Shown piece after piece: positions 1-47,294 of a stretch of 54,976 nucleotides of DNA (positions are counted from its first letter, which is position 1; each line of letters begins with the position of its first letter). The notes beneath the pieces were generated by a model, which saw nothing but the letters and a program-made list of their open reading frames with translations, did no database searches and had not been told where the DNA came from. Source of the stretch: a virus (taxonomy: Duplodnaviria; Caudoviricetes); IMG/VR virus record IMGVR_UViG_3300009124_000015, positions 1 through 54,976 of that record; one strand, given 5' to 3'. The position numbers and the translations under genes are program-made.

Positions 1-342
1 GGCTAAGCGTTCGGGAATGGCTGGCCTTTTTGCCCGGTACGGTCACCCGGGGGGATTAATAACATGACAAACGGGAGACGCGCGGGCGCGGGCGGGCGGG
101 CGTGTGTGCGCGTGCGGGGAATGCGGCGGGGATACGCGTTGGTGGGGCACCCTTGGGATCGCCGATGTGGTTGGCCTGTAAGAATGTTGCGGGGAAAGCT
201 AGTATTGTATCGCTACCAAAGCTTTGAATATAATAATATTTCTTTTCTGCATAGGGGCGGGGAAGGGCCACCCCACCCCCCTACGTCAACTGCTAGCAAT
301 ACCGGTCGTAATTTTATTTTTTTGGAGTAATCGGGGTCGGTA

Positions 343-399
343 CAAAACGTACGCCACTGGGAAAGCAAAACGTACCCCTAACGAGGGGGCAAAACGTAC
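343..399. repeat. Three direct repeats CAAAACGTAC (343, 366, 390), 23-24 bp period
   Basis: Read directly from the sequence; non-coding region. Confidence 0.85.
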
Positions 400-451
400 T
401 CCTTACGTACGTGGCGGGGTGTATAGGTTTACCCCGGCGGGCCTTACGCCC

Positions 452-480
452 AGTGTACCGTCCAAAAGCGCTTTTGTCAA
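452..480 (-). promoter_or_regulatory. Leftward sigma70-type promoter
   Basis: Minus strand reads TTGACA-17 nt-TACACT. Confidence 0.7.
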
Positions 481-489
481 GAAAAAAAG

Positions 490-518
490 TTGACACTTCC
501 CGCCCGAGTCGCTATACT
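490..518 (+). promoter_or_regulatory. Rightward sigma70-type promoter for the packaging/structural block
   Basis: TTGACA-17 nt-TATACT with an upstream A-tract. Confidence 0.8.
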
Positions 519-595
519 ATTGTCGTGAACCACACTTTTACCCGTCACACCACCCCTCAAAACAATTCCGTTTTAACAAAGTTGGTACGACGCAC

Positions 596-829
596 GTGTG
601 GTTCACCACAATTTTGAAAGATAGCCTCGTGTTCACCGCAATCGTATTCGCGTGTACGTTTTACATCACGCAAGAATGCCTCCGTTTCGAGGATACACGG
701 GGTCCGTACGCCACAGAAGAGGCGTGTATCGAGCGGATCGTCGAAATGGCCGGTAATATCCGCACCATATCGCCCAACTTGCAAATCGTACGTACAATGT
801 GCGTACCAAATCCCGGACAACCAACGTAA
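596..829 (+). CDS. Small hypothetical protein with hydrophobic N-terminus and several Cys; true start may be GTG ~629
   Basis: First ORF after the promoter; abuts the terminase small subunit. Confidence 0.6.
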   Translation: MWFTTILKDSLVFTAIVFACTFYITQECLRFEDTRGPYATEEACIERIVEMAGNIRTISPNLQIVRTMCVPNPGQPT

Positions 830-832
830 AAA

Positions 833-1243
833 ATGAACCTCTTACCCCAACAAAGGCCGAAAGAGCGCGTTCTCACCGTTCAACAGCAGCAATTTCTCGA
901 CTTGTTGTTTGAAAACGGCGGTAATGTCGCTGCAGCAGCCATAGACGCAGGATATTCACGCGGCTCTTCACAGTGGCTCAAGAAGACGTTGGCCGATGAG
1001 ATCGTAGAGCGTACGAAAGACATCCTTTCCGTCAACGCGATCAAGGCCGCTAATCGCCTAGTTAGTACGATTGACAACCCCGCCCCCGAACGCGGAGACG
1101 ACCTACGCCTCAAAGCAGCCGAATCACTCTTGACACGTGTCGGAGTTAAGGCTCCCGAGCAGGTAAACCACAACGTAACGGCAGTTCACGGCGTAGTCCT
1201 TCTGCCACCCAAGAATGAGGTAACAATCGATGGAACGAGCTAA
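833..1243 (+). CDS. terS: Terminase small subunit (putative)
   Basis: HTH-like LTVQQQQFLDLLFENGGNVAAAAIDAGYS; lies upstream of terL. Confidence 0.7.
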   Translation: MNLLPQQRPKERVLTVQQQQFLDLLFENGGNVAAAAIDAGYSRGSSQWLKKTLADEIVERTKDILSVNAIKAANRLVSTIDNPAPERGDDLRLKAAESLLTRVGVKAPEQVNHNVTAVHGVVLLPPKNEVTIDGTS

Positions 1244-1463
1244 AAATGTAGTTGATTATGTACGGGCACAGTTTCGTGACATCGACTACGAAAACATGAC
1301 CCTCAAGCAAATCAAAGAAGAAGCCCAGACGTACGCACGTATGACAGGTATGAACGAAGAAGAAGCGAGTCGTCACGCCAAAAGTATGATAGAAACGTGG
1401 CACGAGGTACACGGCAACAACAAAGGCCGCAAAGCGGGCGGTAGTAGCGAAAAGCCCGAGTGA
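1230..1463 (+). CDS. Hypothetical protein
   Basis: GAGG RBS; overlaps both neighbours in operon fashion. Confidence 0.65.
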   Translation: MERAKNVVDYVRAQFRDIDYENMTLKQIKEEAQTYARMTGMNEEEASRHAKSMIETWHEVHGNNKGRKAGGSSEKPE

Positions 1464-3157
1464 TGACTGACGACGCGCCGAAACGCAAGCGCGGTAGGCC
1501 CAAGAAAGACCCTAATGCCCCGAAGGCAACATACCAGCTTTCTACGCAAGAACGTGCAAGACGCGCGGCGCAGGGCCGCTTACGCTCCGCAAAAACCCGT
1601 GCGGCAAAAGTCTCTAAGGCCGCAGAAGACAAACGTCGCTACGCCCGCCAACTCGAAGAAAAGGTCGGAAAAGTTGAAGAAGCTCTCAAAGGTACTAAGT
1701 CTGCCACAGTCGATCTTGGGGATTTGCATGATTTGCCAGAAGCCGTTTCGGACCTTGTCGGCGAAAGCGAAGTTGTTTTCCAGCCGAATAGCGGACCTCA
1801 AACGGACTTTCTTTCGGCGGGTGAACGAGATGTTCTCTACGGGGGAGCAGCCGGGGGAGGTAAATCTTTCGCTCTCTTGGCCGACCCTCTGCGCTTCTGT
1901 CACAACCCTAATCATCGTGGGCTTCTTCTTAGGCGTACTCTCGACGAGCTAACCGAACTCATCGACAAGTCACGTCAACTCTACACGAAGGCGTTTCCCG
2001 GTGCGAAGTTCCGCGAATCCAAATCCACGTGGGTTTTCCCGTCGGGCGCAACGATCTGGTTTACGTACCTCGACAAAGACAAAGACGTAACCCGCTTTCA
2101 AGGGCAAGCGTTCAACTGGATTGGTATCGACGAAATAACCCAGTACCCCACGCCGTACGTCTGGGACTACTTGCGTTCTCGTCTCCGTGCAACAGACCCC
2201 GAACTCCAACAACACCTCTACATGCGCTGCACAGCCAACCCCGGCGGTGTCGGCGGCTGGTGGGTGAAGAAAACGTACATCGATGGGATCGAGCCGAACA
2301 AAGCGTTCGCCGCATTCGACATCGAAACCGGAAAATCTTTTCTGTGGCCACCGAGCCACGAAAAAGCAGGTCAACCGTTGTTCCTTCGCAAGTTTGTACC
2401 GGCACGGCTGACTGACAATCCCTACCTCATGGCAGATGGTCAATACGAGGCCATGTTGAGGTCGCTCCCGGAAGTCGAGCGGAAGAGACTTCTCGAAGGG
2501 GATTGGGACGTGGCGGAGGGAGCGGCCTTCCCAGAATTTTCACGAGCGAGACATGTGGTCGAACATTTTGAACTTCCAACCAACTGGCCCCGCATACGTG
2601 CGGCAGACTACGGCTATGCGAGTCCGTCGTGCGTTCTTTGGGGGGCTATTGACTGGGATAACAATATCTGGATTTATCGTGAATTATATGCTAAACACTT
2701 GACAGCGGAGCAACTCGCTGATAAAATACTAGAAGCAGAGGAGCTAGACCCGCTCCCTCACTACACCGTCTTAGACTCCTCGTGTTGGAACAAGACGGGT
2801 TTCGGACCTTCGATAGCAGAGACTATGATGCGAGTCGGTGTGCGGTGGACGCCCTCCGACCGTAATCGCATACAAGGAAAGATGGAGGTACACCGTCGCC
2901 TCGCAGACGATCCGTACACAAACGAACCTCGCCTCCGTATCTTTTCAACGTGTACGAATACTGTCAAGCAACTTGCTGGCATACCGCTCTCCAAGAGTAA
3001 CAGCGAAGACGTAGACACAAAGGCCGAAGATCACGCATACGACGCCCTCCGCTATATGGTCATGACACGTATGAGCGGGTACGCTTCGATCCACAAACAA
3101 CTTGGTTCGATCAAAAACCAAGTGTATCAAGTCCAAGACGCTACATTCGGATACTAA
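1460..3157 (+). CDS. terL: Terminase large subunit with a basic N-terminal extension
   Basis: Walker A YGGAAGGGKS, Walker B IGIDE, motif III CTANPGG, nuclease motifs ADYG and DHAYDALRY. Confidence 0.95.
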   Translation: MMTDDAPKRKRGRPKKDPNAPKATYQLSTQERARRAAQGRLRSAKTRAAKVSKAAEDKRRYARQLEEKVGKVEEALKGTKSATVDLGDLHDLPEAVSDLVGESEVVFQPNSGPQTDFLSAGERDVLYGGAAGGGKSFALLADPLRFCHNPNHRGLLLRRTLDELTELIDKSRQLYTKAFPGAKFRESKSTWVFPSGATIWFTYLDKDKDVTRFQGQAFNWIGIDEITQYPTPYVWDYLRSRLRATDPELQQHLYMRCTANPGGVGGWWVKKTYIDGIEPNKAFAAFDIETGKSFLWPPSHEKAGQPLFLRKFVPARLTDNPYLMADGQYEAMLRSLPEVERKRLLEGDWDVAEGAAFPEFSRARHVVEHFELPTNWPRIRAADYGYASPSCVLWGAIDWDNNIWIYRELYAKHLTAEQLADKILEAEELDPLPHYTVLDSSCWNKTGFGPSIAETMMRVGVRWTPSDRNRIQGKMEVHRRLADDPYTNEPRLRIFSTCTNTVKQLAGIPLSKSNSEDVDTKAEDHAYDALRYMVMTRMSGYASIHKQLGSIKNQVYQVQDATFGY

Positions 3158-3160
3158 TAG

Positions 3161-5059
3161 ATGGCAAAGACTATCATATCTACGAATTTCGATCCGTCCC
3201 AAATTACACTCCGGGATTTTATGGAGTTGTACGTCGAAAAGCGCGAAATTAAGAGGGATAACTTTTTTAGCGGTTTTTCCGACGCCGTATTTCAGCCGTA
3301 TATGGACCGGCCCGCTATCGAGTTTTTTGAATCCGCACGAGAAGAGGGGAACCCGCTTCAGAGGTTCTTCGACGATCAAGCGGCTAAGGGCGTAGGCCCC
3401 GGGGGTGCCGAAAAAGCGTACTCTAACGCAAAAAACCTCGAAGATAACATCATACATCAACTCAAGCGCCTCAAGCGCATGGGCGAGTACGCAGATGACA
3501 CGAACGGGTTTCCTCGCCTAACAGATACCGTAGTAAAACCGGCAAAAGGCGCACCCCGATCCAAAAAGTTTAAGATCAATCCGGAAAGGCTCGGACTTCT
3601 CAAAGTAAAACTCATCGAACACGCTCGGGAAAATCCAAAAGATGTCCCGATCGTACGTGCCCTTCTTGTGCAGATGTATACCGGATTTCGTCCGAAAGAA
3701 ATTATACAGATGCCGATGCAAGGCACGATCAAAGAAGCTGCCGAAGGAAGTGTGTCGAAGGGTCTCTTTCTTCCGGCAGGTATCACAAAGATGGACGAAG
3801 CGTTCGCCGTCCCCTTAACTCCGCACCTAGAGTCCGCCCTCAATTCGGCGATCGATAGCAACTCCTCTCGATTTGTAGATCGATCTATGCCAGACCGTAT
3901 GTTTTTAATGGACAATGGCAACCCTATTCCGGAGGGTGCCCTTTCGCGGGTTTTGAAACAAATCGAAGTTCCGGGAATCTTAGAAGATGCCGTAACCGGA
4001 GAGCCTATCAACTTCTTGACAGCCGCGTACGATCTTCGTCGTGCCCACGCCACGGGTGTAAATCAACTCGGCTACGGTGTGGAGGTCGGTGCAAAGATGA
4101 AGGGGCGGGCTATCAAGGCCGCTACTGCTGGTGACGAACCCCGCTACGTAGCAACCGGCTTTAGGTTTCACACTGCAGAAGACTTGACGCCCCACGTAGC
4201 GTGGCACAATTTTATCGACAAAGCATTTGCCGGTGCGGCAGGAATTGAAGGCGGCGGCGTACTCGGAAACGTCATCATAAGCCCCGAGCAAGACGTACTC
4301 GGAAAAGGTATCGTAGCAAATCGCGTGTCCGACCTCATGACTATGGACGTAAACGACATGTCCAACGTCATGATCATGCCTACCGCAATTCCCGGAAATA
4401 TCGCCCTTCCCGCCGCACCCGGAGAAGTAACAGAGGAAGCTATCCGAGATCAGGCGGATCGTTTCGTGAAGAATCTGTCCGGTAAAACCTTTAAGAATCC
4501 CAAGTTTCGCATGGTAGGTCCGGCGCTTCTTGCCGGTGTTGCAGGGGGAGAAGGCGAAGCACCCTCCGATCAAACCATAGATACTACCCTAGAACTGTTG
4601 AGGGATGCGGCTTTCGACGAGGCGGGGTATCAAGCGATCTCTATGCCACTCGTACGGGCCGGGGCATCGATGACCGCCGCAGGTATGGCTGCTACGTTTG
4701 TCCAAGAGGCGTTACGCACCGGAGAAGCAGAAGCACAAGAACGCGACCCGATGGAGCGGGCAGTTTACGAAGAAGAGCTACAAGCTGCAGCCCGCGAAGG
4801 ACAATACGCCCCGGATGCCACAGCTTCAACCCCGTCAGGAGAGACGGTCACATTACCCCGCGTAGAATTTTTCCCGCCGATCGGAAAGGCGGAAGGCGAA
4901 GCACAGACGGTTCTCGAAGAACAATTTGCCGAGCCTGATGTATTCGAGGGCAGCCCTCGTGACGTACAGGAGCGTCGAACGGCTGAAATGGAACGCATAG
5001 TCACTGAAGATACGGCTATGCAAACAGACGAAACCCCGGGCTTTGTGGCCCGCAGATAA
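3161..5059 (+). CDS. Tyrosine-recombinase/integrase-like protein with a long acidic C-terminal extension
   Basis: LLVQMYTGFRPKEI (box I Arg), ITKMD (Lys), AYDLRRAHAT (box II), MKGR...EPRY (putative catalytic Tyr). Confidence 0.7.
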   Translation: MAKTIISTNFDPSQITLRDFMELYVEKREIKRDNFFSGFSDAVFQPYMDRPAIEFFESAREEGNPLQRFFDDQAAKGVGPGGAEKAYSNAKNLEDNIIHQLKRLKRMGEYADDTNGFPRLTDTVVKPAKGAPRSKKFKINPERLGLLKVKLIEHARENPKDVPIVRALLVQMYTGFRPKEIIQMPMQGTIKEAAEGSVSKGLFLPAGITKMDEAFAVPLTPHLESALNSAIDSNSSRFVDRSMPDRMFLMDNGNPIPEGALSRVLKQIEVPGILEDAVTGEPINFLTAAYDLRRAHATGVNQLGYGVEVGAKMKGRAIKAATAGDEPRYVATGFRFHTAEDLTPHVAWHNFIDKAFAGAAGIEGGGVLGNVIISPEQDVLGKGIVANRVSDLMTMDVNDMSNVMIMPTAIPGNIALPAAPGEVTEEAIRDQADRFVKNLSGKTFKNPKFRMVGPALLAGVAGGEGEAPSDQTIDTTLELLRDAAFDEAGYQAISMPLVRAGASMTAAGMAATFVQEALRTGEAEAQERDPMERAVYEEELQAAAREGQYAPDATASTPSGETVTLPRVEFFPPIGKAEGEAQTVLEEQFAEPDVFEGSPRDVQERRTAEMERIVTEDTAMQTDETPGFVARR

Positions 5060-5071
5060 CGGAGCAAATCT

Positions 5072-5290
5072 ATGCCGAACAACAATTACAATTACGGTGC
5101 GGATTACATCATGAATGCTGACAAGACTACTGTCGATGCAAGCATGGGTGAGTCCACACTCTATCGTGAAGGTCTTGAGTTCGATACTCGGGCGAAGACT
5201 GGTGTTCTCACGGAAGACATGCCTAAGAAAATGACTAAGGCTGCTGTCGATCCGTCGGTTATGAGCATGGCCGAAGAGCGCGACTACTAA
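5072..5290 (+). CDS. Small hypothetical protein
   Basis: GGAG RBS; fills the gap before portal. Confidence 0.7.
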   Translation: MPNNNYNYGADYIMNADKTTVDASMGESTLYREGLEFDTRAKTGVLTEDMPKKMTKAAVDPSVMSMAEERDY

Positions 5291-5314
5291 AAACACAAAA
5301 AGGTAGTATTCCCT

Positions 5315-7453
5315 ATGGAAGATAGGTTTCTCGAACCTGCTGACGACACTGAAGTACCCGTAGCATCTCCTGAAGAGCAGATGCCGTATCTTTCGGAGTA
5401 TATTCTGAAAAGATTCGAAGACGCCGAAAACGGGCGTTACGCGTACGAACAGCGGTGGCTACAGGCATACAAAAACTTTCGTGGAATTTACGATTCGAGT
5501 ACGCAATACCGAGAATCTGAGCGATCTAAGGTATTCATCAAGATCACCAAAACAAAGGTTCTTGCTGCGTACGGTCAGATCGTAGACATTCTCTTTTCGA
5601 ATAAAAAGTTCCCGATTGTTGTCGAGCCTACCCCAGTTCCGGAGGGTGTAGCCGAATTCGCTCACCTCAAAACTCCTCTCGACGAAGTTGTTTCACAGCA
5701 GCAAACTCCGATGATCGATCCGTACGGATTCGAGGGGGACGGACGAGAACTAGCTCCGGGCGCTATGCAAGCCGAGCAACCACACTTCTTAGGTGCGTAT
5801 GGGGCGACTATGCAAAATGCAAACGTCGTTCCGGGAAAGGCACTTGCAGGTGAGCCACAAATTTCACCGGCTCAAGAATCCGCCCTCAAGTGTGAAAAGA
5901 CGATCCACGACCAACTCGTCGATACAAATGCCGTAACGGTTATCCGCAAAAGCATATTCGAAGCCGCTCTTCTCGGCACGGGTGTTCTCAAAGGCCCGCT
6001 GAATATGTATAAACGTATTCATCGTTGGGAAAACGGCGAGGACGGGGAACGGGAATACAATCCGTACGAAAAGGTAGTTCCGCGCATCGAACACGTTTCG
6101 ATTTGGGATTTCTACCCCGATCCGGCTGCTGTCAACATCGAGGATTGCGAATACGTAATCCAGCGGCACCGGATGAATCGCCAACAGCTTCGCAGCCTTC
6201 TTTTGATGCCTCACTTTAGGGCGGAAGCCGTCGAGGCGACAATCGCATCCGGCCCTAACTACGACGACAAATACTTTGAAGATACAATCCGAGAAGACGA
6301 AACAGAGGCGTACTACAACGAAAGTCGCTTCGAGGTTTTCGAATATTGGGGAGTGATCGATACGGATATGGCCGAATCTATCGGCATCTCTCGTGAAGAG
6401 CTTCCGGATAATCTCTCTCAAGTTCAGGTGAACGCGTGGGTATGCGGCGGAAACGTACTGCGGTGTGTTGTCAATCCGTTTACCCCCGCTCGTATTCCAT
6501 ACTTTGCTTTGCCGTACGAAATCAACCCGTATCAAATCTGGGGCGTCGGTGTTGCAGAGAATATGGAAGACGCTCAGATGTTGATGAATGGTCACGTCCG
6601 TATGGCAATCGACAACCTTGCCCTTGCCGGTAACCTCGTCTTCGATGTAGACGAAGCGTCGTTGGTACCCGGACAGAACATGGACATCTTCCCGGGTAAG
6701 ATTTTCCGTCGTCAGTCGGGTGTTACAGGAACAGCGATCAACGGTCTCAAGTTCCCGAACACGGCTCCTGAAAACATTCAGATGTATCAGATAAGCCGTC
6801 AACTCGCAGACGAAGAGACAGGTCTACCTTCTATTATGCACGGACAGACGGGTGTGTCAGGCACAGGACGTACCGCAGCGGGTTTGTCTATGCTTCTGGG
6901 TAGCGCAAGCCTGTCGATGAAGACTGTCATTAAGAATATTGACGATCATCTTTTGAAGCCACTCGGTGAAGCGTATTACCAGTGGAATATGCAGTTCAAC
7001 GAAGCGATGGACGATATAAAGGGCGACTTGGAAATCAAGCCCCGGGGTATCGCTGCCGTTATGCAAAAAGAAGTTCGAAGTCAGAGATTGATCGGTCTTC
7101 TTCAAACCGTATCTAATCCGATGCTAGCTCCGTTTATCAAGATTCCGAACCTTCTTCGCGAACTTGCTATCACACAGGATATCGATCCGGACAGCCTTGT
7201 CAACGACGTAAACGAGGCTCAAATCTACGCACAGATGCTACAGGGGATGATGGCTAATGCTCAACAAGAATCAGGCCCAGATGGTGGCCCCGCTGGTCAA
7301 CAACAACCCGGCATGGACGGGGCTAGAGGAGTACCTCAACAGCCTCAAGGAGATAACAGTGCAGGGCCTAGCGGGGGCGCAATCGGAGTCGGAACTGCGC
7401 CAACTGCAGGGGAAGCTGGTTTTACTGGAAACACTCCTGAAGTTGAAGAGTAA
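5315..7453 (+). CDS. Portal (head-tail connector) protein
   Basis: 712 aa; motifs SKVFIKITKTKVLAAY, SIWDFYPDP, WGVGVAE, RTAAGLSML typical of P22/N4-like podovirus portals; position. Confidence 0.88.
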   Translation: MEDRFLEPADDTEVPVASPEEQMPYLSEYILKRFEDAENGRYAYEQRWLQAYKNFRGIYDSSTQYRESERSKVFIKITKTKVLAAYGQIVDILFSNKKFPIVVEPTPVPEGVAEFAHLKTPLDEVVSQQQTPMIDPYGFEGDGRELAPGAMQAEQPHFLGAYGATMQNANVVPGKALAGEPQISPAQESALKCEKTIHDQLVDTNAVTVIRKSIFEAALLGTGVLKGPLNMYKRIHRWENGEDGEREYNPYEKVVPRIEHVSIWDFYPDPAAVNIEDCEYVIQRHRMNRQQLRSLLLMPHFRAEAVEATIASGPNYDDKYFEDTIREDETEAYYNESRFEVFEYWGVIDTDMAESIGISREELPDNLSQVQVNAWVCGGNVLRCVVNPFTPARIPYFALPYEINPYQIWGVGVAENMEDAQMLMNGHVRMAIDNLALAGNLVFDVDEASLVPGQNMDIFPGKIFRRQSGVTGTAINGLKFPNTAPENIQMYQISRQLADEETGLPSIMHGQTGVSGTGRTAAGLSMLLGSASLSMKTVIKNIDDHLLKPLGEAYYQWNMQFNEAMDDIKGDLEIKPRGIAAVMQKEVRSQRLIGLLQTVSNPMLAPFIKIPNLLRELAITQDIDPDSLVNDVNEAQIYAQMLQGMMANAQQESGPDGGPAGQQQPGMDGARGVPQQPQGDNSAGPSGGAIGVGTAPTAGEAGFTGNTPEVEE

Positions 7454-7484
7454 CCACGAGGCGGTAGTCAAAGGAAACAAGTGA
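7257..7484 (+). CDS. Small helical protein overlapping the portal 3' end in another frame
   Basis: WTGLEEYL...ELRQLQGKL resembles small post-portal podovirus proteins; ends 1 nt before the next ATG. Confidence 0.65.
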   Translation: MLNKNQAQMVAPLVNNNPAWTGLEEYLNSLKEITVQGLAGAQSESELRQLQGKLVLLETLLKLKSNHEAVVKGNK

Positions 7485-7485
7485 T

Positions 7486-9462
7486 ATGTTCAACTGGTAC
7501 GACACCAAAAATTTAGGTTTGAACTGGTATGAGTACGTGCTTCCTGCGGAGGAGGATACGGATTCGACAACGCCGATTGTTTCTCCGGAAACTATCACGT
7601 CGGCACAGATGTTTGGAGCCGTACGAGAACAGCAAGACGAAGACCCGAACACTATTCGGATGCGTCGTAGATCGCAAACCGGAAGACTCGATCTTATGAA
7701 CGCAAAAATGATAGGCTATACAGACATTAAATATGGTGACTTTAACGGATACTTAAAAGAAAAGGGTCTTCCGGACCGTTCCGGATTCTTTGCAAACACC
7801 CATTTTCCTACCTCCGAAAAGGGTATGACATCTATGCAAGGGGCGGGAATTGCCGGGGGATTAACTGGTGGAAATCCGTTTATGGGATTGATGGGTGGTT
7901 TTATCGGTGCCGAATCGCAAATTGTAGCCGATCCGACCGGAGAGTATAACAGAAATATTCCAAAGACCGGCATAGGTAATCCCCTCGCTTCTATTGCCAT
8001 CTCTAGTGAGTACGCGGGTTTGGGAAAAATCCGTGACGCGTGGTCGGCTAATCCTACGGGATCGCTACAGGAAAACGGATTTGCTTTCAATCTCGGCGGC
8101 GTTACTGTGTGGCGCGATCCGAATAGCAATCGCTACAGCGGTCAACTCGATCGTATCGGACTAGATCAGCGCACGGCTCGTGATCTCGAAAGTCTGATGG
8201 TTGGTCGGGAGTTGGGAGATCAACTTGTTAATAATTATTTGAACGCAGAGTCAATACCCTTTTTTACCGATCTTGCGATTGCTGCCGGAATGTACCCGGA
8301 TAGCTACGGACGAGTTATCGTCGATAATGTTCAAGGTTTTGACTTTGATAATATCGTTTTGGGTACGAAAAATGGCGGTTACACCCTCGACGGACGCTTC
8401 AACTTCAAAGGACAGATGGGGCGTAACGGTCGTATGGAGGACTTTGATAACCTCGTAGATACCGTTTTTGATGGTAACAAAGATTCTGCTCGTAGCTGGC
8501 TAAATACATCTCGCTCTACCAAGTTCGAGTCGGCAGCAGATAAGATTCAGAACTTGCAATACTTTATTTTGAAGTCTCGTGGTTTCGAACACGTAACAGC
8601 TATGAATATGATTTCTACTGCGGGTACTACCGTGCCGTCCACAACTTCTACGACGAAAACCACCTCAACAACGACTCCCGCGCCTTCTGCACCGGCCCCG
8701 CAGCCCGCAGCAGGTCCGACGGGGGCAGCAGGTCCGACGGGGGATGAGCGTGTTAGCTCATTACTCGCTGCAGGTGAGACCCGATTTGCTAATATTCTCG
8801 GTCGTGGCTTTGTCGCAGTCGACGAGGGCACTACGTTTACGTCGCAACGAGAGAGCGTCGATTCCGCTCCAGCCGGTCGTAGCTTCAGCGTTAGCTACAG
8901 CGAATATGGTGGTGGTGCCGGAACTCCGAGCGGCGGGGGCACGGGCTTTGGGTTCCGCGCACAAGGTGGTCCTATCCTCAGACAAGAGGGTGGCGGCGTA
9001 CCTGCCGATCCGGAAGGATTTGTGCGTGGCGCACCCCGTCCACAACCTGAAGATAGCATCGTTTCTAGGGATGAAATTCAACGCCCCGCCCCGGAATCTG
9101 GTTTTGTCGTGCGGCCTCCATCACAAGTGTCTGAGGATGCTTCGATTGCCGATGATATCGACATGGAACCGGAAGTTGGCGGTGAAGTTATCAATGCCTC
9201 TGCCGTATCTGTTGCGGGCGAAAAAGACATCTACGAAATGATCGAAGACGCTAAAAAGTACCGCAAAAACGTAAAAGGTATTGACAAACCCGTAGAAACG
9301 AGTAATATTAAAATATCGGCAGGAGAAGTCTATGTAGACCCCGAGCTTGCCGACATCATAGGCCGCGACAAGATTCGTAAGATCAACGAGCGCGGCGTCC
9401 CCGCCACAAAGAAAAAACAGCAGCGTTCTCAACGCGCCTCTCGTGGCACAAAAGTTTCCTAA
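7486..9462 (+). CDS. Hypothetical, probably virion-associated protein (658 aa)
   Basis: Long ORF between portal and scaffold; T/P/A-rich linker. Confidence 0.7.
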   Translation: MFNWYDTKNLGLNWYEYVLPAEEDTDSTTPIVSPETITSAQMFGAVREQQDEDPNTIRMRRRSQTGRLDLMNAKMIGYTDIKYGDFNGYLKEKGLPDRSGFFANTHFPTSEKGMTSMQGAGIAGGLTGGNPFMGLMGGFIGAESQIVADPTGEYNRNIPKTGIGNPLASIAISSEYAGLGKIRDAWSANPTGSLQENGFAFNLGGVTVWRDPNSNRYSGQLDRIGLDQRTARDLESLMVGRELGDQLVNNYLNAESIPFFTDLAIAAGMYPDSYGRVIVDNVQGFDFDNIVLGTKNGGYTLDGRFNFKGQMGRNGRMEDFDNLVDTVFDGNKDSARSWLNTSRSTKFESAADKIQNLQYFILKSRGFEHVTAMNMISTAGTTVPSTTSTTKTTSTTTPAPSAPAPQPAAGPTGAAGPTGDERVSSLLAAGETRFANILGRGFVAVDEGTTFTSQRESVDSAPAGRSFSVSYSEYGGGAGTPSGGGTGFGFRAQGGPILRQEGGGVPADPEGFVRGAPRPQPEDSIVSRDEIQRPAPESGFVVRPPSQVSEDASIADDIDMEPEVGGEVINASAVSVAGEKDIYEMIEDAKKYRKNVKGIDKPVETSNIKISAGEVYVDPELADIIGRDKIRKINERGVPATKKKQQRSQRASRGTKVS

Positions 9463-9478
9463 TACATTTTTTGTATTC

Positions 9479-9550
9479 GTCAGCTACCCGCTACGTTCAT
9501 TCGCGGCCCTGACACAACCGGAGCGGCTACCCACAGCCAAGTGGCCCCGC
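9479..9550 (+). promoter_or_regulatory. Twin hairpins with identical CUACC/GCC internal loops upstream of the scaffold RBS
   Basis: GTCAG-CTACC-CGC...GCG-GCC-CTGAC and GCGG-CTACC-CAC...GTG-GCC-CCGC. Confidence 0.65.
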
Positions 9551-9566
9551 ATGTGAGGTAAATAAA

Positions 9567-10466
9567 ATGGCAAAAAAAGTTCGCGGCCATCGCGGCAACA
9601 AACCCAACGATTCTTTCGGAACGATTAACAGCGACACTCTCTACAAAGGAAAGTACCGCGAAGAAGTCTACAAAGACGACGATGATGAATCCGAAGAAGA
9701 GGTTCAAGAGGCATCTTCCCAAGAAAAGGAAGACCAGCAAGTAGAAGAACAGGCTACTCAGCAAGAAAACTTTGCCGACCCCAAACCTTCTAACGAACCT
9801 GACTACAAAAAGCGTTACGACGATTTGAAGCGTCACTACGACGGAAAGCTCGAAGAGTGGAGACAAGAGAAGTCTCAACTAGAGGCCAAGTTTACCACGA
9901 TCCAAAACATTCCGTCTCAAGAATCGGGACTCGACCTAGATCAGTTTCAAAGTCAATATCCCGATGTGTACGCTGCTATCCAAAAGATTTCTTCTACGCA
10001 ATCAGAAGCACGTGTTAGAAATCTCGAAGGAGAGCTAGAGCAAATCAGAAAGCGGGAAAAAACTCTCGAAAAGCAAAAGGCGTACGAAGAGCTTCTCCGT
10101 TTGCAGCCGGAATTTGAGACGATCAAAGAATCTGAAGATTTTACGTCTTGGCTGCAAGATCAACCACAATCTATTTCTGATGGCGTATACAATAACTCAA
10201 CAGATGCCCAGTGGGCCAGTCGAGTTATTGATCTCTACAAATCTGACAGGGGTTTGACTAAAAAAACGTCTACTCGCACTCGCAAAAACGACGACGCGGC
10301 CATGTCCGTTTCTAAAACGGCGGCACGAGAAGTTGCTACGCAAACAGGCGATAAACGTATCTGGAAAGCTTCTGAAATCGGCAGGATGAAGCCGTGGGAG
10401 TTCGAAAAAATGGAAAAGGAACTCGACGCGGCACGTTCGGAAGGCCGAATCGACTACAAATCTTAA
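9567..10466 (+). CDS. Capsid scaffolding protein
   Basis: Acidic coiled coil, YKKRYDDLKRHYD, C-terminal AARSEGRI; directly upstream of the capsid gene. Confidence 0.8.
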   Translation: MAKKVRGHRGNKPNDSFGTINSDTLYKGKYREEVYKDDDDESEEEVQEASSQEKEDQQVEEQATQQENFADPKPSNEPDYKKRYDDLKRHYDGKLEEWRQEKSQLEAKFTTIQNIPSQESGLDLDQFQSQYPDVYAAIQKISSTQSEARVRNLEGELEQIRKREKTLEKQKAYEELLRLQPEFETIKESEDFTSWLQDQPQSISDGVYNNSTDAQWASRVIDLYKSDRGLTKKTSTRTRKNDDAAMSVSKTAAREVATQTGDKRIWKASEIGRMKPWEFEKMEKELDAARSEGRIDYKS

Positions 10467-10496
10467 CACTAACCTCAAAATAGGAAGGAAAGACCA

Positions 10497-11471
10497 ATGG
10501 CTTTTGATAGTGCATCAGGTTACAACAACCTGCCTTCCGGTAACTTTACTCCGGAAATCTTCAGTCAAAAGGTTCTCAAGTTCTTCCGTCGCGCTTCGGT
10601 TGCAGAAGACATCACGAATACCGACTACGCTGGCGAAATTGAGAACTATGGTGATACCGTCCGTATCATCAAAGAACCTACCATCACCGTTTCTAGCTAC
10701 TCTCGTGGCTCGGTGGTAAACCCGCAAGACCTCGCTGACGATCAGACCACTATGGTTGTAGATCAGGCGAACGCCTTTGCATTCAAGATTGACGACATTG
10801 AAGAGCGTCAGTCCCACGTCAACTTCGAGGCTCTTGCCACTTCTTCGGGTGCATACTCCTTGAAGCGCAAGTACGACGCCAACATCCTGTCCTCTATGGC
10901 TGCAGGTGCAGGTCTGACCGGCGAGTCCGGTGCTGCAACCGCTACCATTGGCGACATTGGTACGCTGGCTTCGGCTCTCGACATCGGCGGCGCAGGCACT
11001 CCGGGCGACACTGCAGTCAACACCATGCTGGTGATGGCTCAAGCCCTCGATGACCAGTCTGTTCCGGAAGAGAACCGCTGGTTCGTTGCTCCCCCGGCTT
11101 TCTACAAGCACCTGTTCTCGGCAGGTTCGAAGTTCGCAGAAGTTCAGGTAACTGGCGATGCGACTTCCCCGCTGCGTAACGGCCTTGTGTCGCTGGGCAA
11201 CATTGCTGGCTTCCAGTGCTACAAGTCTACTGCCCTCGTCTCAAACGGCGGCACTGACCAAGTAACTCTGTCGGGCCTCGCTACTGACGGGACTGAGAAC
11301 CTGCTCCTTGCTGGTCACATGTCCTCAACGGCTACCGCTTCGCACATCGCGAAGACCGAAGTTGTCCGTTCAACTGAAACCTTCTCTGACATCGTTCGTG
11401 GTCTCCACGTTTTTGGTCGCAAAGTTCTGCGTCCGGAAGCAATGGTTCGCGGCGTTGTTAGCCTCGACTAG
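10497..11471 (+). CDS. Major capsid protein
   Basis: NFTPEIFSQKVL, ITNTDYAGEI..GDTVRI, DIVRGLHVFGRKVLRPE; strongly biased codon usage. Confidence 0.92.
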   Translation: MAFDSASGYNNLPSGNFTPEIFSQKVLKFFRRASVAEDITNTDYAGEIENYGDTVRIIKEPTITVSSYSRGSVVNPQDLADDQTTMVVDQANAFAFKIDDIEERQSHVNFEALATSSGAYSLKRKYDANILSSMAAGAGLTGESGAATATIGDIGTLASALDIGGAGTPGDTAVNTMLVMAQALDDQSVPEENRWFVAPPAFYKHLFSAGSKFAEVQVTGDATSPLRNGLVSLGNIAGFQCYKSTALVSNGGTDQVTLSGLATDGTENLLLAGHMSSTATASHIAKTEVVRSTETFSDIVRGLHVFGRKVLRPEAMVRGVVSLD

Positions 11472-11488
11472 ATTAGGGAGATTCACTA

Positions 11489-11905
11489 ATGGCTACTTAC
11501 GCAGTTACCGATAACGGTGTAGCGGTTGCATCTGGTGCAAAACCCTACCTGCAAGAGGTTGTGCTGGACTTTTCCACCACCAATCTCGGCATCAACGAAG
11601 ACATCGACGCCCTGCAGATTCCGGCTAACACGCTGGTTCTGTGCGTCGGTATCGAACTCGTAACCGCAAGCTCCAACGCGGGTACGATTGATGTTGGCGA
11701 CGGCACCGCTGCTGACACGTGGGTCACTGACCTCGACGCAGACGGCGCAGTCGGCATTCAGGAGACTGGTTCTGCTGCTAAGTTCTACTTGGCTGCTGAC
11801 ACCATCGACGTGAAGGCCATCACTGCAATCATGGACGGTAAAGTCCGTGTGTTTGCCGTAATGGTTCCGATGAACGCTGCTGGCACCGCCGCAGCATTCG
11901 CCTAA
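11489..11905 (+). CDS. Putative capsid decoration/cement protein
   Basis: Beta-rich 138 aa protein co-transcribed after the capsid gene, with similar codon bias. Confidence 0.6.
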   Translation: MATYAVTDNGVAVASGAKPYLQEVVLDFSTTNLGINEDIDALQIPANTLVLCVGIELVTASSNAGTIDVGDGTAADTWVTDLDADGAVGIQETGSAAKFYLAADTIDVKAITAIMDGKVRVFAVMVPMNAAGTAAAFA

Positions 11906-11912
11906 CCAACTC

Positions 11913-11947
11913 GTCAGGGGGGCCACGTGCCCCCTTGACACCCTTTT
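11913..11947 (+). terminator. Hairpin after the capsid genes (probable terminator); its 3' arm contains TTGACA
   Basis: GTCAGGGGG...CCCCCTTGAC stem followed by CCCTTTT. Confidence 0.55.
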
Positions 11948-11990
11948 AATTATGTGATAAAAGCAGGAACCTCCTGCGGGGATAAATACT

Positions 11991-12287
11991 ATGCCACGCA
12001 AAAAGGAAGCACCGATCAAACGTACCACGTCGGGAAAGGGTGCAAACTACCGCCCTACCAAGTCAGGTGCGGGTATGACGGCAAAAGGGGTCAAAGAATA
12101 CCGTAAAAAGAACCCCGGTTCCAAACTCAAGACTGCAGTCACCGGCAAGGTAAAAGCCGGAAGCAAAGACGCAAAACGTCGCAAGTCGTTCTGTGCCCGC
12201 TCTGCCGGTCAGATGAAGAAGTTTCCGAAAGCTGCAAAAGACCCGAACAGCCGCCTTAGACAGGCACGAAAGAGGTGGAAATGCTAA
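11991..12287 (+). CDS. Highly basic small protein (DUF6321-like, from recall)
   Basis: RRKSFCARSAGQMKKFPKAAKDPNSRLRQARKRWKC. Confidence 0.75.
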   Translation: MPRKKEAPIKRTTSGKGANYRPTKSGAGMTAKGVKEYRKKNPGSKLKTAVTGKVKAGSKDAKRRKSFCARSAGQMKKFPKAAKDPNSRLRQARKRWKC

Positions 12288-22456: not shown

Positions 22457-23797
22457 ATGTTTGCATCCTCCTCATTTTCGCAAGCACCTTTTTCGTCTCC
22501 GGGTACTTCGATCTTTGAGGTAACTGCTTCTGTTTCTGGTGCCGCTAGTGTATCAGTATCGGCAGTTCGGGTAAAAGATGCAACAACATCTGTATCGGGT
22601 GCCGCTACCGTATCGGGAAGCGCAACCCGCCGCTTTGTAGGTGCAGCGTCCGTATCCGGTGCTGCTACCGTATCCGGATCGGCAACGTCATTCAAGGCAG
22701 CGACGGCATCTGCGTCCGGTGTGGGTACGATCAGCGGAGCAGCCACTCTCGAAACTCCGGCAGGTGCGTCCGTATCCGGTGCCGGTTCGCAAACGGGAGC
22801 GGCTACAGCCCGTCTCGTTGCAAGCGGCTCTCTTTCCGCGAGTGGCACGTCGAGTGCAACAGGAACAGCCCGTCGTCCGGGTGACTCGGACATCTCCGGT
22901 GCAGCGACGATATCCGGAACTACGCTACTCAGGGCTACGGGTTCGTCGTCAGTATCCGGTGCGGCAACGGTATCGTCGAGCGGGGTACGGGTTCAAGAGG
23001 GTGGTGCCTCTGTATCCGGCGCAACGACGGTATCATCACAAGCCACGCTTCGCGCCCCGGCTGATTCGTCCGTATCCGGTGTGGCAACCACATCATCTGC
23101 CGCAACCCTACGCGCCCCGGCTGACTCGTCCGTATCTGGCGCAGGTACGATTTCCGGAGCGGGAATTAGGGTTCGTACCGGGGAAAGCTTCGTATCCGGT
23201 GCGGGTACGGTTTCTGCAACCGGCGACAAAATACGAGACGGTTCAGCGTCCGTATCGGGTGCAACCACCGTATCTGCGTCTGTGTTGCGGATCAAAGACG
23301 GTACCTCTTCTGTATCCGGCGCAACCACCATATCGGCGGGCGGGGTGCGGATACAAGAGGGTGAGGGTAGCGCCGACGGTGCCGCCTCTCAATCTAGCTC
23401 GGTAGTTCGGATACGTAACGGTGCAGCATCCGTGTCGGGTGCAACGACAGTATCTGCAGCAGGTATTCGAATACAAGTCGTAGCGAGTTCCGTAATCGGA
23501 ACCGGCTCGGTCGCAGGAGTTGCAAGCCGTCTCACAGCAGGAGCCGCATCCGTATCCGGACAGGCAACTGTCGTCGCAACCGGCTTCCGGTCGTTCTTCT
23601 TCGACGCGACACTCTACGAACGCAAGCACGTCGTATTCGTACCCGCAGAACAACAGCGTGTAGTTCACGTCACACAGCCGACAGAACACATCCTTTACGT
23701 CGTACAAGATAAACAACGAATTGTGTTCGTACCCGAAGAAAAACCACGAGTTGTATCTGTGCCACAAGCCGCACAAAGATTAGCAAAGGTAGCATAA
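22457..23797 (+). CDS. Ser/Ala/Gly/Thr-rich 20-aa repeat structural protein
   Basis: SVSGAATVS units recurring every 60 nt. Confidence 0.8.
   Translation: MFASSSFSQAPFSSPGTSIFEVTASVSGAASVSVSAVRVKDATTSVSGAATVSGSATRRFVGAASVSGAATVSGSATSFKAATASASGVGTISGAATLETPAGASVSGAGSQTGAATARLVASGSLSASGTSSATGTARRPGDSDISGAATISGTTLLRATGSSSVSGAATVSSSGVRVQEGGASVSGATTVSSQATLRAPADSSVSGVATTSSAATLRAPADSSVSGAGTISGAGIRVRTGESFVSGAGTVSATGDKIRDGSASVSGATTVSASVLRIKDGTSSVSGATTISAGGVRIQEGEGSADGAASQSSSVVRIRNGAASVSGATTVSAAGIRIQVVASSVIGTGSVAGVASRLTAGAASVSGQATVVATGFRSFFFDATLYERKHVVFVPAEQQRVVHVTQPTEHILYVVQDKQRIVFVPEEKPRVVSVPQAAQRLAKVA
22525..23590 (+). repeat. About 18 degenerate 60-bp coding tandem repeats (core CGTATCCGGT)
   Basis: Core recurs at 22592, 22652, 22772, 22952, 23012, 23072, 23192 and onward. 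Confidence 0.85.
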
Positions 23798-30044: not shown

Positions 30045-30470
30045 GTGGGCTTATTTGGTGGAGACTTTTCTTTTGCAGATAGCGTAGCAGATACGTTTTC
30101 GAACGCGTTTACCTTGTTTCAAATCGGGGCACAGGTACTCGGCGAATCTGAAAAAGAAACGGACTATTCGAGCTTTGTTAAAAAGCACAGATTTACTCCG
30201 GCACAGACCGTCGGCAGACCTATGTACCCGCAACAGATGGAAGCTCCGGTGGGCTTGAGGGGACCGAGTTTGCAAACGGCGATGAAGTATTTTGCAGACA
30301 ATCCTCCGAGCGACGTAAACTTCCAGTCTATTCGTACTCAAAGTTACGTAGCAAAGGCCCCACGATACACTTCGACCAAACCGACAATGACCATTTCAGA
30401 TGCCAACACCATCACCGGACGTAAGCAGAGCGTCAATGTTTCTGGCGTCATGTCCCTTTCATCTTCCTAA
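30045..30470 (+). CDS. Hypothetical protein, probably internal virion
   Basis: GGAG RBS with GTG start; context. Confidence 0.65.
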   Translation: MGLFGGDFSFADSVADTFSNAFTLFQIGAQVLGESEKETDYSSFVKKHRFTPAQTVGRPMYPQQMEAPVGLRGPSLQTAMKYFADNPPSDVNFQSIRTQSYVAKAPRYTSTKPTMTISDANTITGRKQSVNVSGVMSLSSS

Positions 30471-30479: not shown

Positions 30480-31094
30480 ATGTTTCAAGGCTCAAACAAA
30501 AAGGAAGTACGTCGTGGTTCGACAGAAGCCATCGATCAGTTTTCTGCGGCACCTCCGGGAATCTCCCTGACAAGCGACAATTCAAAGTGGCCGTGGGGAA
30601 ATCCCCCTCAAGAGGTAGACGTAGATGTTATCGTGGAGAACGCCGCCCGTAAACTCCAAAATGATGACGTGTTCCGTGACGAGATGTTCAAGCTTCTTTT
30701 GGCAGGTGTATCGATCGAACACATCGTAGAGACGTGGGTTATCGACGGATTTCAAAACGGACGCTTTAGTCTCGACACCGGACTCCTTGCAAAGGGTCCG
30801 CTCGGCGTGTTTGTTGCCTATATGGCCGACTCGAACGGCGTACCTTACCGTATGTTCGAAAAGGATAACCCACAAGACGAGCGGCGCATGGATGATGCGA
30901 CGTACTTCCGCCTCATGAAAACGAACAATCCGGCTATGTTCTCAACTATCCGCGAGGGCTTGAACAGGGCTATTCGCAACGGAGAAAAGGCTTTCAACGA
31001 AGAGTTCGAAAGAATGGAAACCGAAGTTGAAGATCGAGATCGCAACGATAATAATAATGACGACGACGAGACCAGAGAAGGATTTATGGACTGA
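30480..31094 (+). CDS. Hypothetical protein, probably internal virion
   Basis: PPGISLT...WPWGNPP motif; GAGG RBS. Confidence 0.72.
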   Translation: MFQGSNKKEVRRGSTEAIDQFSAAPPGISLTSDNSKWPWGNPPQEVDVDVIVENAARKLQNDDVFRDEMFKLLLAGVSIEHIVETWVIDGFQNGRFSLDTGLLAKGPLGVFVAYMADSNGVPYRMFEKDNPQDERRMDDATYFRLMKTNNPAMFSTIREGLNRAIRNGEKAFNEEFERMETEVEDRDRNDNNNDDDETREGFMD

Positions 31095-45752: not shown

Positions 45753-47294
45753 TTACAGTTCTACTTCGTGCAAGTCAAGCCAATTTTTACCTGCTTTGAT
45801 CTCTATTCCGACAGGCATGTTGTACGTGACACCATAACGTCGAACAGTTTCAAAGGGTAACGAGAGCATAGCGTGTTTCATCATGTCTATGCAAATATTT
45901 TTTTCATCCGGGTGTACGTCCATAACGATCGAATCGTGTACGGTGTTGCAAATCACACTGCGTACTCCGGAGTCGCGTACGATCTTCTCTAAGGCGACGA
46001 GAGCAATAGGCAAGAGGTCAGCCGTAGCGAACCCCTGAACCGGGTAGTTACAGATCGACGTGCGGTGTGTAGCCGTCCCGTACTTCGTCCACCGGGCATC
46101 TGGGAAGGCGTACTCCCGTCCGGACGGAAGGGTGATTACTCGCTTCTCAACAGCCGTACGCTGGAGGTGGTCGTGCCACAGGGTAACACCCTCGTACTTT
46201 TCCTTGAACGCCTTGTAGTAGCGTTGTTGAGCCTCTGTGCCGGTTGTGCCTCCGTAGAGGGGCTTGAAGGTATGTGCCTTCGCCTCTTGGCGTGTGCAGC
46301 CGATAACGGATGCGGTGTAATTGTGTACGTCCGTTCCGTTCCGTACGTCGATGTACGCCTGTGCATCGTTCGCAAGGAACCCGGCAACCCGAAACTCTAG
46401 CTGCGAGTAATCCCCCTCAACGATGAAGCCACCCTCGAAGCGGCTCTCGACCACCTTGCGTATAGCGAAGGTATTTCCACGTGGCATATTCTGAAAGTTA
46501 GGATTGCGAGACGAAAGGCGACCCGTCGCCGTAACGCACTGCATAAACTCCGGATGGATGAATCCCTTCTCATCGACATTGTTCTTGATCCCTTCTACAA
46601 ATGTGTTGAGGTACGTACGCAACGCATTGAACCGGACGTACCCCGTGACAAACTCACGAGCGTCACCGGACAACTCGGACGAGCGTACGTCGAGTGTCTC
46701 CTTGTCCGTACGAAATCCGGCAGAGGCCACGTCGTACGCATCACGGGGAGATATCTTGAACCCGGCAACTTCCGTACTCGGTATGTAAAGGACGCCGACA
46801 CCATCACACCGCTTACACACACGTACCGCCTTGCCGAGCGTACCATCCTTCTTCGTTACGCGATTACGACCGTGACCGTTGCACGACGTACACGTCTCGG
46901 CACGTGTCCTGTAAACGATGTCCGTCATACGGCGGACGGTCTGGTTGAATTCTTTCTTTGCAAAGCGGGTACGCTGCTTCGGCTTCATCGTTGCACCGCG
47001 TTGCTCCATGCCCAAGTTGAACGTGCGTGACCACTCGCGCTTGTCTTTTACTTTGCGTGAGTAGAGAAGCATCGACCGGTCGTCGGGGCTTGTCAGACTG
47101 ACGGGTGTGTCACCCATCGCGTTACGCGCCAAGTCATTGAGACGAGCCTCTAAGGTCTCTAGCTCTTCGGTATACATCTTCTCGATCTCGTCGAGTGTAT
47201 CCATGTTTATCTTTAGGCCGACCCGCTCGACACGAGCGAGTACGTCTGTCATTTCAAGCGACAGCTTCAGTGTGGGTACGAGTCCCTTTTCCAT
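45753..47294 (-). CDS. polA: Family A DNA polymerase (polymerase part) with DnaJ-type zinc finger
   Basis: TATGRLSS..PNFQN, motif A DYSQLEFR, motif B RQEAKAHTFKPLYG, motif C TVHDS; CTSCNGHG and CKRCDGVG. Confidence 0.93.
   Translation of the reverse strand: MEKGLVPTLKLSLEMTDVLARVERVGLKINMDTLDEIEKMYTEELETLEARLNDLARNAMGDTPVSLTSPDDRSMLLYSRKVKDKREWSRTFNLGMEQRGATMKPKQRTRFAKKEFNQTVRRMTDIVYRTRAETCTSCNGHGRNRVTKKDGTLGKAVRVCKRCDGVGVLYIPSTEVAGFKISPRDAYDVASAGFRTDKETLDVRSSELSGDAREFVTGYVRFNALRTYLNTFVEGIKNNVDEKGFIHPEFMQCVTATGRLSSRNPNFQNMPRGNTFAIRKVVESRFEGGFIVEGDYSQLEFRVAGFLANDAQAYIDVRNGTDVHNYTASVIGCTRQEAKAHTFKPLYGGTTGTEAQQRYYKAFKEKYEGVTLWHDHLQRTAVEKRVITLPSGREYAFPDARWTKYGTATHRTSICNYPVQGFATADLLPIALVALEKIVRDSGVRSVICNTVHDSIVMDVHPDEKNICIDMMKHAMLSLPFETVRRYGVTYNMPVGIEIKAGKNWLDLHEVEL

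Follow-up and report, generated by a model that had tools for sequence, protein, structure and literature searches.

The window analysed here is a complete virus record of IMG/VR from an uncultured phage (IMGVR_UViG_3300009124_000015, 54,976 bp), and the gene in question is an open reading frame (ORF) of 632 amino acids (aa) located between the genes for the large terminase subunit (TerL) and the portal protein. This position will be called the slot. The protein that occupies it in the window is P0001, which belongs to a family designated A. All genes at the locus are on the plus strand. TerL is encoded at 1460..3157 and matches the terminase large subunit family phrog_979 of PHROG (E 2.4e-61) and Pfam Terminase_6N. 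The slot gene follows at 3161..5059, and the original prediction, which had been made from the sequence of the window, was correct about the existence of the 632-aa ORF and its ATG 3 nt past the terL stop codon. It was also correct in placing the gene between terL and the portal gene, but the slot gene and the portal gene are separated by a conserved ORF of 72 aa (5072..5290, beginning MPNNNYNYGA) that has no PHROG or Pfam match. The portal gene is located at 5315..7453 (Pfam SU10_portal, E 5e-26). The spacers on either side of the slot gene and after the 72-aa ORF are 3, 12 and 24 nt, in that order. A promoter and terminator scan of positions 1-12000 gave counts no higher than those of shuffled sequence and found no plus-strand terminator-like site between terL and the portal gene; both results are weak and are not used as evidence.

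The predicted structure of P0001 shows an enzyme body followed by an acidic, disordered tail that ends in a short motif. The N-terminal part (aa ~14-130, 3200..3550) is predicted to be a helical, SAM-like core-binding domain, as it matches isolated core-binding domains of integrases. The catalytic domain (aa ~131-360, 3551..4240) was delimited by fold matches and residue conservation and contains R177, K210, Y290, R293, R316 and Y329. It is followed by an extra segment (aa ~361-430, 4241..4450) that is acidic (net charge -7) and confidently folded, with blocks of predicted local confidence (pLDDT) of 93-97 up to aa ~410. The tail (aa 431-632, 4451..5056) ends ...ETPGFVARR, and its pLDDT is mostly below 50 from aa 442 onwards. 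It has a net charge of -17 and contains 15.3% Ala, 12.9% Glu and 6.4% Pro. An acidic tail rich in these three residues had been described at the outset; its presence stands, but its length was put at ~290 aa, whereas the fold reaches aa ~430 and the tail is only ~200 aa long. The recombinase motifs TGFR, TK, YDLRR, KGR and PRY were all found where the original prediction had put them. They are located at TGFR 174-177 (Arg codon at nt 3689), ITKMD 208-212, YDLRR 290-294 (nt 4028), KGR 314-316 (nt 4100) and PRY 327-329 (Tyr codon at nt 4145).

Predicted fold and catalytic residues

An AlphaFold model of P0001, made with an alignment of 42 family-A sequences, has a mean pLDDT of 78.2; residues 4-430 are confident and most of residues 442-632 fall below 50. 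A Foldseek search of the PDB gave 16 matches at E<=1e-3, and the best 13 of the 16 are all tyrosine recombinases aligned over 327-383 columns. XerH, lambda Int, XerA, Tn1549 Int and Cre are among the matches. The VIA-align comparison, made against 48,161 chains, gave Z 14.4 for XerA (249 residues aligned, rmsd 8.3), Z 14.1 for the integrase 3nkh (166 aligned, rmsd 2.7), Z 13.9 for lambda Int (240 aligned, rmsd 3.5), Z 12.8 for IntI and Z 12.7 for the catalytic domain 1ae9. Core-binding domains alone matched model residues ~14-130 with Z 6-8 (2khv 7.9, 3lys 7.5, lambda core-binding domain 2oxo 7.2). Other chains of the recombinase fold scored lower: SSV1 Int catalytic domain Z 9.6, Cre Z 8.9 and the regulators SroF (9rd5) Z 8.9 and MrpR (8a0a) Z 7.3. 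Type IB topoisomerases scored Z 8.1-9.2, and the protelomerases TelA, TelK and ResT scored 7.2, 6.4 and 4.6. Among the best 50 matches in BFVD all those with a name are integrases; Mx8 IntP, a long integrase, is among the matches. Neighbours in the ESM Atlas are integrase-like only. On the strength of the Foldseek, VIA-align and BFVD matches, the slot protein is, as modelled, a two-domain tyrosine recombinase that is nearer to the Xer/Int kind than to protelomerases or type IB topoisomerases. The tyrosine-recombinase fold that had been proposed from the motifs alone is thus borne out by the comparison with Int/Xer/Cre, protelomerase and topoisomerase structures, and a model that lacked the fold did not result. 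Protelomerases and type IB topoisomerases were considered as nearest kin of family A and rejected, as the recombinases score clearly higher.

The sequence signal is fainter than the structural one. P0001 matches Pfam Phage_integrase (PF00589) with 21.4 bits, under the gathering cut-off of 27.1, and phrog_1 of PHROG with an E value of 3.8e-4. A word-indexed search with the slot protein found 17 relatives; with phmmer, run exhaustively against 1.84 billion cluster representatives, the number at E<=1e-3 was 60. Most family-A relatives are 520-730 aa in length and their similarity is confined to the first ~350 residues. The family-A alignment consists of 42 full-length sequences picked from 76 found. 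M1, P159, R177, F248, R293 and Y329 are invariant in it (42/42). R316 is present in 41 of the 42 sequences, and K210 in 30 of 42 and in all 17 of the closer set. The Y290 column is more variable, with Tyr in 25 of 42 sequences and Gln, Ser, Lys, Ala, Arg, Val or Gly in the others. The motifs therefore exceed chance, since R177, R293 and Y329 are invariant and R316 and K210 are mostly kept. Twelve of the 42 members match Pfam Phage_integrase at E<=0.01, the best at 2.2e-9.

The family-A profile matches the solved integrase 3nkh with E 9.7e-6 (hmmsearch), in an alignment that pairs R177 and K210 with the Arg and Lys of 3nkh. When the profile is aligned to lambda Int the match is weak (E 0.06); R177 and K210 then correspond to R212 and K235, Y290 to H308, R293 to R311 and R316 to H333 of lambda Int. 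The claim that both classical histidines are replaced (by Y290 and R316) agrees with the weak lambda Int alignment, with the first half of the 3nkh alignment and with the aligned ranges of the fold matches, and the accompanying claim of a conserved Arg-Lys-Arg-Tyr catalytic set agrees with the residue counts in the 42-sequence alignment. Neither the His of HxxR nor the His/Trp ahead of the tyrosine is kept in family A. The change of His to Tyr is not unique, as integrases of the pNOB8 type are described as R...YxxR...Y and treated as working enzymes in the available text of PMC8371274.

Locus conservation and cassette replacement

Slot genes were found in 79 uncultured IMG/VR loci, 20 of which have a family-A gene and 59 a gene of a second family, B. 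The order TerL, slot gene, portal is seen in all 79 wherever flanks exist. TerL and/or portal are in the expected order at 18 of the 20 family-A loci, and the other two (L023 and L024) are halves truncated by the end of a contig. At family-B loci TerL is upstream in 57/59 and portal is downstream in 50/59; the rest are cut by contig ends and no other order occurs. The terL-portal position, to which the original prediction had attached importance, is conserved in every related locus with flanks, and no locus was found that departs from it. The 72-aa ORF was detected by tblastn in 73 of the 79 loci with 44-85% identity, and the six loci without a hit stop short of its position. The isolate loci of HMO-2011 and HTVC115P lack it (tblastn). 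The 72-aa ORF may be part of the same system as the recombinase-like gene because it is its constant companion. A complex prediction for portal, 72-aa protein and tail scored 0.02 (mark 0.32) and has no bearing either way.

The family-B protein P0080 has 619 aa (L025 2158-4017) and no Pfam domain. Its detectable similarity to family A is limited to the C-terminal 68 residues, over which it is 88% identical to the family-A protein P0057. A word-indexed search found 127 family-B relatives of 600-790 aa, and the loci are L025 and L027-L084. Seven residues, R188, K225, R227, R302, K303, H326 and Y342, are invariant in 30/30 sequences, and H298 is present in 20/30. The family-B model has a pLDDT of 75.4, and the VIA-align matches include XerA (Z 9.7), Tn1549 Int (9.1) and Leishmania topoisomerase I (8.3). 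Recombinases score Z 8.4-9.7 and type IB topoisomerases Z 7.3-8.3, and all of the best 36 matches are recombinases, type IB topoisomerases or their relatives. Foldseek on this model gave weak matches only (best E 5e-3). A sequence link between the two families was sought with hhalign and none was found. Families A and B are taken here to be far-diverged forms of one gene because of the predicted fold, the residue pattern, the slot and the shared tails, not because of sequence. The conserved residues of the two families make up a common putative catalytic set, R-K-R-R/H-Y.

The slot gene varies far more than its neighbours. Across the loci the identity to the window is 71-95% for TerL, 63-84% for portal and 22-63% for the slot protein. 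For family-A loci alone the TerL range is 74-91%, and that of the slot protein splits into 36-63% at the closer loci and 22-29% at the more remote ones. At the family-B loci L055, L056 and L058 TerL is 93-95% identical to that of the window. The DNA of L025 and L022 is 92.8% identical up to the slot start codon, then unalignable for ~500 codons, and 83% identical from the last ~110 slot codons through the portal gene. In a contig from an estuary metagenome, 2434 unrelated letters stand between window positions 3166 and 5072, so that the whole slot ORF is replaced. This allele is longer than any of those examined closely. The slot gene is thus a fixed yet hypervariable part of the packaging and head gene block, and its alleles are replaced as whole cassettes.

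The portal of the window is 44-52% identical to those of Pelagibacter phages HTVC115P, HTVC103P and HTVC033P, Puniceispirillum phage HMO-2011 and Roseobacter CRP phages. Together with the gene content, this fits an uncultured, marine podophage of the HMO-2011 type. In HMO-2011 itself terL abuts the portal gene and the slot gene is absent; in HTVC115P three small ORFs are found at the terL-portal position and the slot gene is likewise absent. Homologues in cultured phages were sought by tblastn of four family members (P0001, P0046, P0035 and P0080) against 50,697 phage records and by megablast of the 8-kb region, neither of which gave a match.

The genes of the window include terS, terL, portal, tail genes, the gene of the major head protein and those of two giant proteins (942 and 1743 aa). 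Ribonucleotide reductase, a Cas4-like exonuclease, DNA polymerase, a DnaB-like helicase and primase are encoded in a module on the minus strand. No tRNA gene or tRNA-like piece was present in the window. The DNA polymerase consists of two overlapping minus-strand ORFs, a polymerase part of 513 aa (45753-47294) and an exonuclease part of 194 aa (47254-47838). For the HMO-2011-type group a single polymerase with a DnaJ-like insert between the exonuclease and polymerase parts is described in the available text of PMC9038755. A split gene, a frameshift or an assembly error could account for the two-ORF form. After the portal gene, a plus-strand ORF at 7486-9462 encodes a protein of 658 aa with a Thr/Ser/Pro/Ala/Gly-rich middle, a basic C-terminus and no family match; its conservation in related loci is confined to the ends (~30% N-terminal and 46-49% C-terminal identity). 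A plus-strand ORF of 446 aa at 22457-23797 has ~16 copies of a 60-nt (20-aa) repeat rich in Ser, Gly, Ala, Thr and Val and no PHROG match.

The acidic tail and its terminal motif

The enzyme body and the tail differ in charge. The median isoelectric points (pI) of body and tail are 8.9 and 4.6 in family A and 6.7 and 5.1 in family B. The last ~50 aa of P0001 align with family-B tails, and the tails of both families share classes such as ...RIATEDxGFIPE..VPEAAP..QGFLSR, ..SSGGFINK.. and ..GFMSKYGE... A motif was defined as [GSN]-F-[LIMV] within the last 30 residues and counted over distinct tails. It was found in 28/64 tails of family A and 84/90 of family B, and is denser in the tail than in the enzyme body by 10-fold (A) and about 145-fold (B). 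The same motif was found in 46/61 tails of a third set of proteins, the P0201 family, and in 1/65 of the other window genes.

P0201 is a protein of 204 aa encoded in the structural module (30480..31094, plus strand) whose acidic C-terminus reads ...DDDETREGFMD. Such an end occurs in two of 67 crude window genes, and P0201 is the only one besides the slot gene. Its family comprises 69 relatives with 61 distinct tails. Conservation of P0201 extends to cultured HMO-2011-type phages (13 records), and the homologues of HMO-2011 and CRP-603 end in ...EEPTGLMARRK and ...GGMGLMSKES. The gene belongs to a plus-strand row without family matches (30045-30470, 30480-31094, 31094-33922 and 33924-39155, encoding 141, 204, 942 and 1743 aa) that in size and order resembles the T7 internal virion proteins gp13-gp16, a likeness without profile support.

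The ends of the slot protein and the P0201 homologue could be compared within six genomes, which is a small sample. They are of the same class in 3/6 and similar in 2/6, and in 1/6 the slot protein has no tail motif. The same-class pairs (slot/P0201) are QGFLSR/RGFLTARES, QGFLSR/RGFLSERE and DSFLTMSP/ENFMTMKKK. This is the pairing that a common binding partner would predict.

Possible roles of the enzyme

The slot protein is probably a very divergent, catalytically competent member of the tyrosine recombinase/type IB topoisomerase superfamily. Enzymes of this superfamily cut DNA through a 3'-phosphotyrosine link and then rejoin it. That the slot enzyme is active in DNA breaking and rejoining, as such, is likely judging from the alignments, because two families that otherwise no longer resemble each other in sequence both keep the nucleophile and the two arginines without exception and because R...YxxR...Y integrases are an accepted subfamily. 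The reading preferred here goes further and has a probability of roughly 0.45: an active DNA breaking-rejoining enzyme that would be docked to a component of head assembly. An association with the head or virion is suggested by the position of the gene, the architecture of the tail and the shared motif. The tail motif would dock the enzyme on a head-assembly partner that it has in common with P0201, which may be the portal, the internal core or the capsid shell; docking is suggested because this structural-module protein, though unrelated to the enzyme, carries the motif as well and the two ends tend to co-vary within genomes. So placed, the enzyme would work on the DNA of the phage itself, either at packaging or after delivery with that DNA, and would not be an early-expressed lysogeny integrase. 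Candidate tasks are the cyclisation of a terminally redundant genome, the processing of ends, and relaxation or resolution.

Several points weigh against this reading. The tail motif is missing in 36/64 family-A and 6/90 family-B tails and therefore cannot be the sole docking device. Gene order and size are the only grounds for calling P0201 an internal virion protein, and it has no Pfam or PHROG match. The placement of Y290 and R316 on the two histidines comes from a weak alignment. Cassette-like swapping of alleles is also the classical behaviour of integrase modules. A cognate recombination site would consist of inverted binding repeats that flank a spacer of 6-8 bp; short- and long-range inverted-repeat scans were no better than chance and gave no candidate recombination site. 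The prophage scans discussed below used two exact peptide patterns each and were confined to species representatives, and may have passed over lysogens in uncultured hosts. Finally, a repeat array upstream of terS tracks the terS lineage and not the slot allele. The array is built from the 9-mer AAAACGTAC, which has 18 copies in the window where 0.77 would be expected. Upstream of terS (344-399, 654-662) there are three direct copies at intervals of 23-24 nt and an inverted one, and the 14 others are spread over the genome. The array is also present in loci L054, L055 and L058, and other lineages repeat AAAACAGTG or AAACATACC there. As a site for the enzyme AAAACGTAC was rejected, since loci of the other slot family have this array too; its likely identity is a pac site, a terS site or a regulator site.

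A stronger form of the docking proposal is that the recombinase is loaded into the head. The terminal [GSN]-F-[LIMV] would be a cargo-loading signal held in common with an internal virion protein, and the enzyme would sit inside the capsid and enter the cell with the genome. The incoming genome would be cyclised, capped or relaxed at once, and the extreme diversification of the enzyme would result from an arms race at DNA entry. This form is doubtful. It has a parallel in the T4 internal proteins with their capsid-targeting sequence and in the cargo-loading peptides of encapsulins, which combine a short terminal peptide, a flexible linker and variable cargo. The likeness is an analogy of working only, since the T4 signal is N-terminal and cleaved and the encapsulin consensus differs.

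It could also be that the slot gene is a cryptic lysogeny integrase with its attP within coding sequence, possibly in the gene itself, so that a swap of alleles would change the attachment site in the host. The nearest folds are those of lambda Int, Xer and IntI-type recombinases, and integrase modules typically undergo the replacement of whole cassettes between near-identical flanks that is seen here. PF00589 is matched in the genome by the slot ORF alone and in none of the five relatives that are at least 93% complete (0/5), so the clade has no other tyrosine recombinase. The attP of Mx8 IntP is inside its gene. Integrases of the SSV type hold the recombination site within their own ORF according to the available text of PMC7253208, and other HMO-2011-type subgroups (I-III) are described as temperate through a tyrosine integrase in that of PMC9038755. 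However, the canonical int of these subgroups is located upstream of the replication module, and subgroups IV-X are described there as having no identifiable lysogeny genes (PMC9038755, available text). The slot gene is instead part of a terS-terL-portal block, in which spacers of 3, 12 and 24 nt leave no room for an adjacent attP. The original prediction had set the gene apart from ordinary integrases on account of its placement, which is upheld by these spacers and by its standing as the only Pfam integrase match. An acidic tail of 200-300 aa whose motif recurs in a structural-module protein has no role in an integrase. The window has no tRNA, and no repressor-like Pfam domain was found in 10 ORFs of the early or replication region, a test that was not exhaustive. 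Homologues at prophage borders, which would have suited an ordinary integrase, were not seen: in 185,579 species, each represented by one genome, two scans with exact patterns from the slot protein and from TerL found no relative. These results lower the integrase reading, which is unlikely.

A packaging-time enzyme outside the virion is less likely again. Such an enzyme would be tethered to the terminase or portal and would resolve branches or dimers of the concatemer or relax torsion. T4 endonuclease VII, which works at the portal, would be an analogue. The position directly after terL suits this role, as do the pentad R-K-R-H/R-Y in common with type IB topoisomerases, the type IB topoisomerase scores of family B, which at Z 8.0-8.3 almost equal its recombinase scores, and the freedom of the first histidine position to vary in both families. 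Multimer resolution has been proposed as the task of a tyrosine recombinase in phiCbK, a lytic phage (PMC3556154, available text). Against this, it is not obvious why a housekeeping helper should diverge so extremely and be swapped as a cassette, packaging in cultured HMO-2011-type phages does without the slot gene, as in HMO-2011 where terL abuts portal, and the four family members had no tblastn match in the phage records. The N-terminal domain is also of the recombinase core-binding type and not of the topoisomerase type.

A repurposed, non-catalytic DNA-binding or structural protein that keeps the fold, like the SPbeta/phi3T regulators MrpR and SroF, is very unlikely: the replacement of both classical histidines, the Pfam score under the cut-off, the presence of both regulators among the fold matches and the family-B N-terminal part, which is not basic (median pI 6.7), would suit it, but the Tyr nucleophile and both arginines are invariant in 42/42 (A) and 30/30 (B) sequences at otherwise ~20% identity, which is hard to explain without catalysis, the R...YxxR...Y integrases form a subfamily that is described as functional (PMC8371274, available text), and the family-A N-terminal part is basic (median pI 8.9).

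The enzyme of the preferred reading, docked to the head, can be compared with several known systems. It has the two-domain fold of lambda Int, Xer and IntI (PF00589 with a SAM-like core-binding domain), and its Arg-Lys-Arg-Tyr residues occur in the same order and with similar spacing. It differs from these enzymes in its replaced histidines, a Pfam score below the cut-off, the extra segment at aa 361-430 and the acidic tail, and its gene is located between terL and portal, with no att site, Xis or repressor found. The archaeal integrases of pNOB8 type (R...YxxR...Y) likewise have the first histidine of HxxR replaced (PMC8371274, available text). Those of SSV1 type have R...KxxR...Y, and it is the catalytic domain of SSV1 Int that matches P0001 with Z 9.6. 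Both types are integrases of archaeal plasmids or viruses with known integration and lack the long acidic tail and the packaging-operon context. Type IB topoisomerases and protelomerases share the superfamily chemistry and the catalytic-domain fold, and family B keeps exactly R-K-R-H-Y. Unlike in those enzymes, the N-terminal domain of the slot protein is of the core-binding type; the slot proteins score lower against them than against recombinases or at most equally, and there is no evidence of hairpin ends.

P1 Cre is a cyclisation recombinase that acts on the phage's own DNA, but it has a known lox site and canonical residues. A second phage tyrosine recombinase that would serve the phage's own DNA, by the multimer resolution proposed for it and not by integration, is phiCbK gp143 (PMC3556154, available text). 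Neither has a tail, and neither gene is between terL and portal. Tyrosine recombinases in structural modules have been noted before without an assigned function. The genes of Tyrovirus gp50 and of the recombinases of phage Perkons and the Lactococcus 949 type are found among structural genes, with presumed late co-transcription. Tyrovirus gp50 differs in that it is located between neck and tape-measure genes of large temperate siphophages, is XerC/D-like by CDD and is followed directly by a proposed attP; its description mentions neither a tail nor hypervariability. These statements on Tyrovirus and similar recombinases follow the available text of PMC9703825. A literature search that left out supplements such as the orthogroup tables of PMC9038755 found no account of the slot gene, the tail, the second family or the shared motif.

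HMO-2011-type phages are described as a dominant and widely spread group of marine viruses (PMC9038755, available text). A large uncultured clade of this type, represented by the 79 IMG/VR loci, always carries a gene of the recombinase fold that standard annotation misses; family A is under the Pfam cut-off and family B has no Pfam match. If the gene were a cryptic integrase, the lifestyle scoring of these phages in ocean surveys would change. If it encodes an enzyme of the head or packaging apparatus, that apparatus would contain a DNA breaking-rejoining enzyme for which no characterised phage precedent was found. Should the head-loaded form hold, it would be the first known virion-borne tyrosine recombinase of a phage, in an abundant ocean group. 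The combination of a hypervariable enzyme cassette with a shared terminal peptide makes that peptide a candidate protein-loading signal, one that is testable and could be reused.

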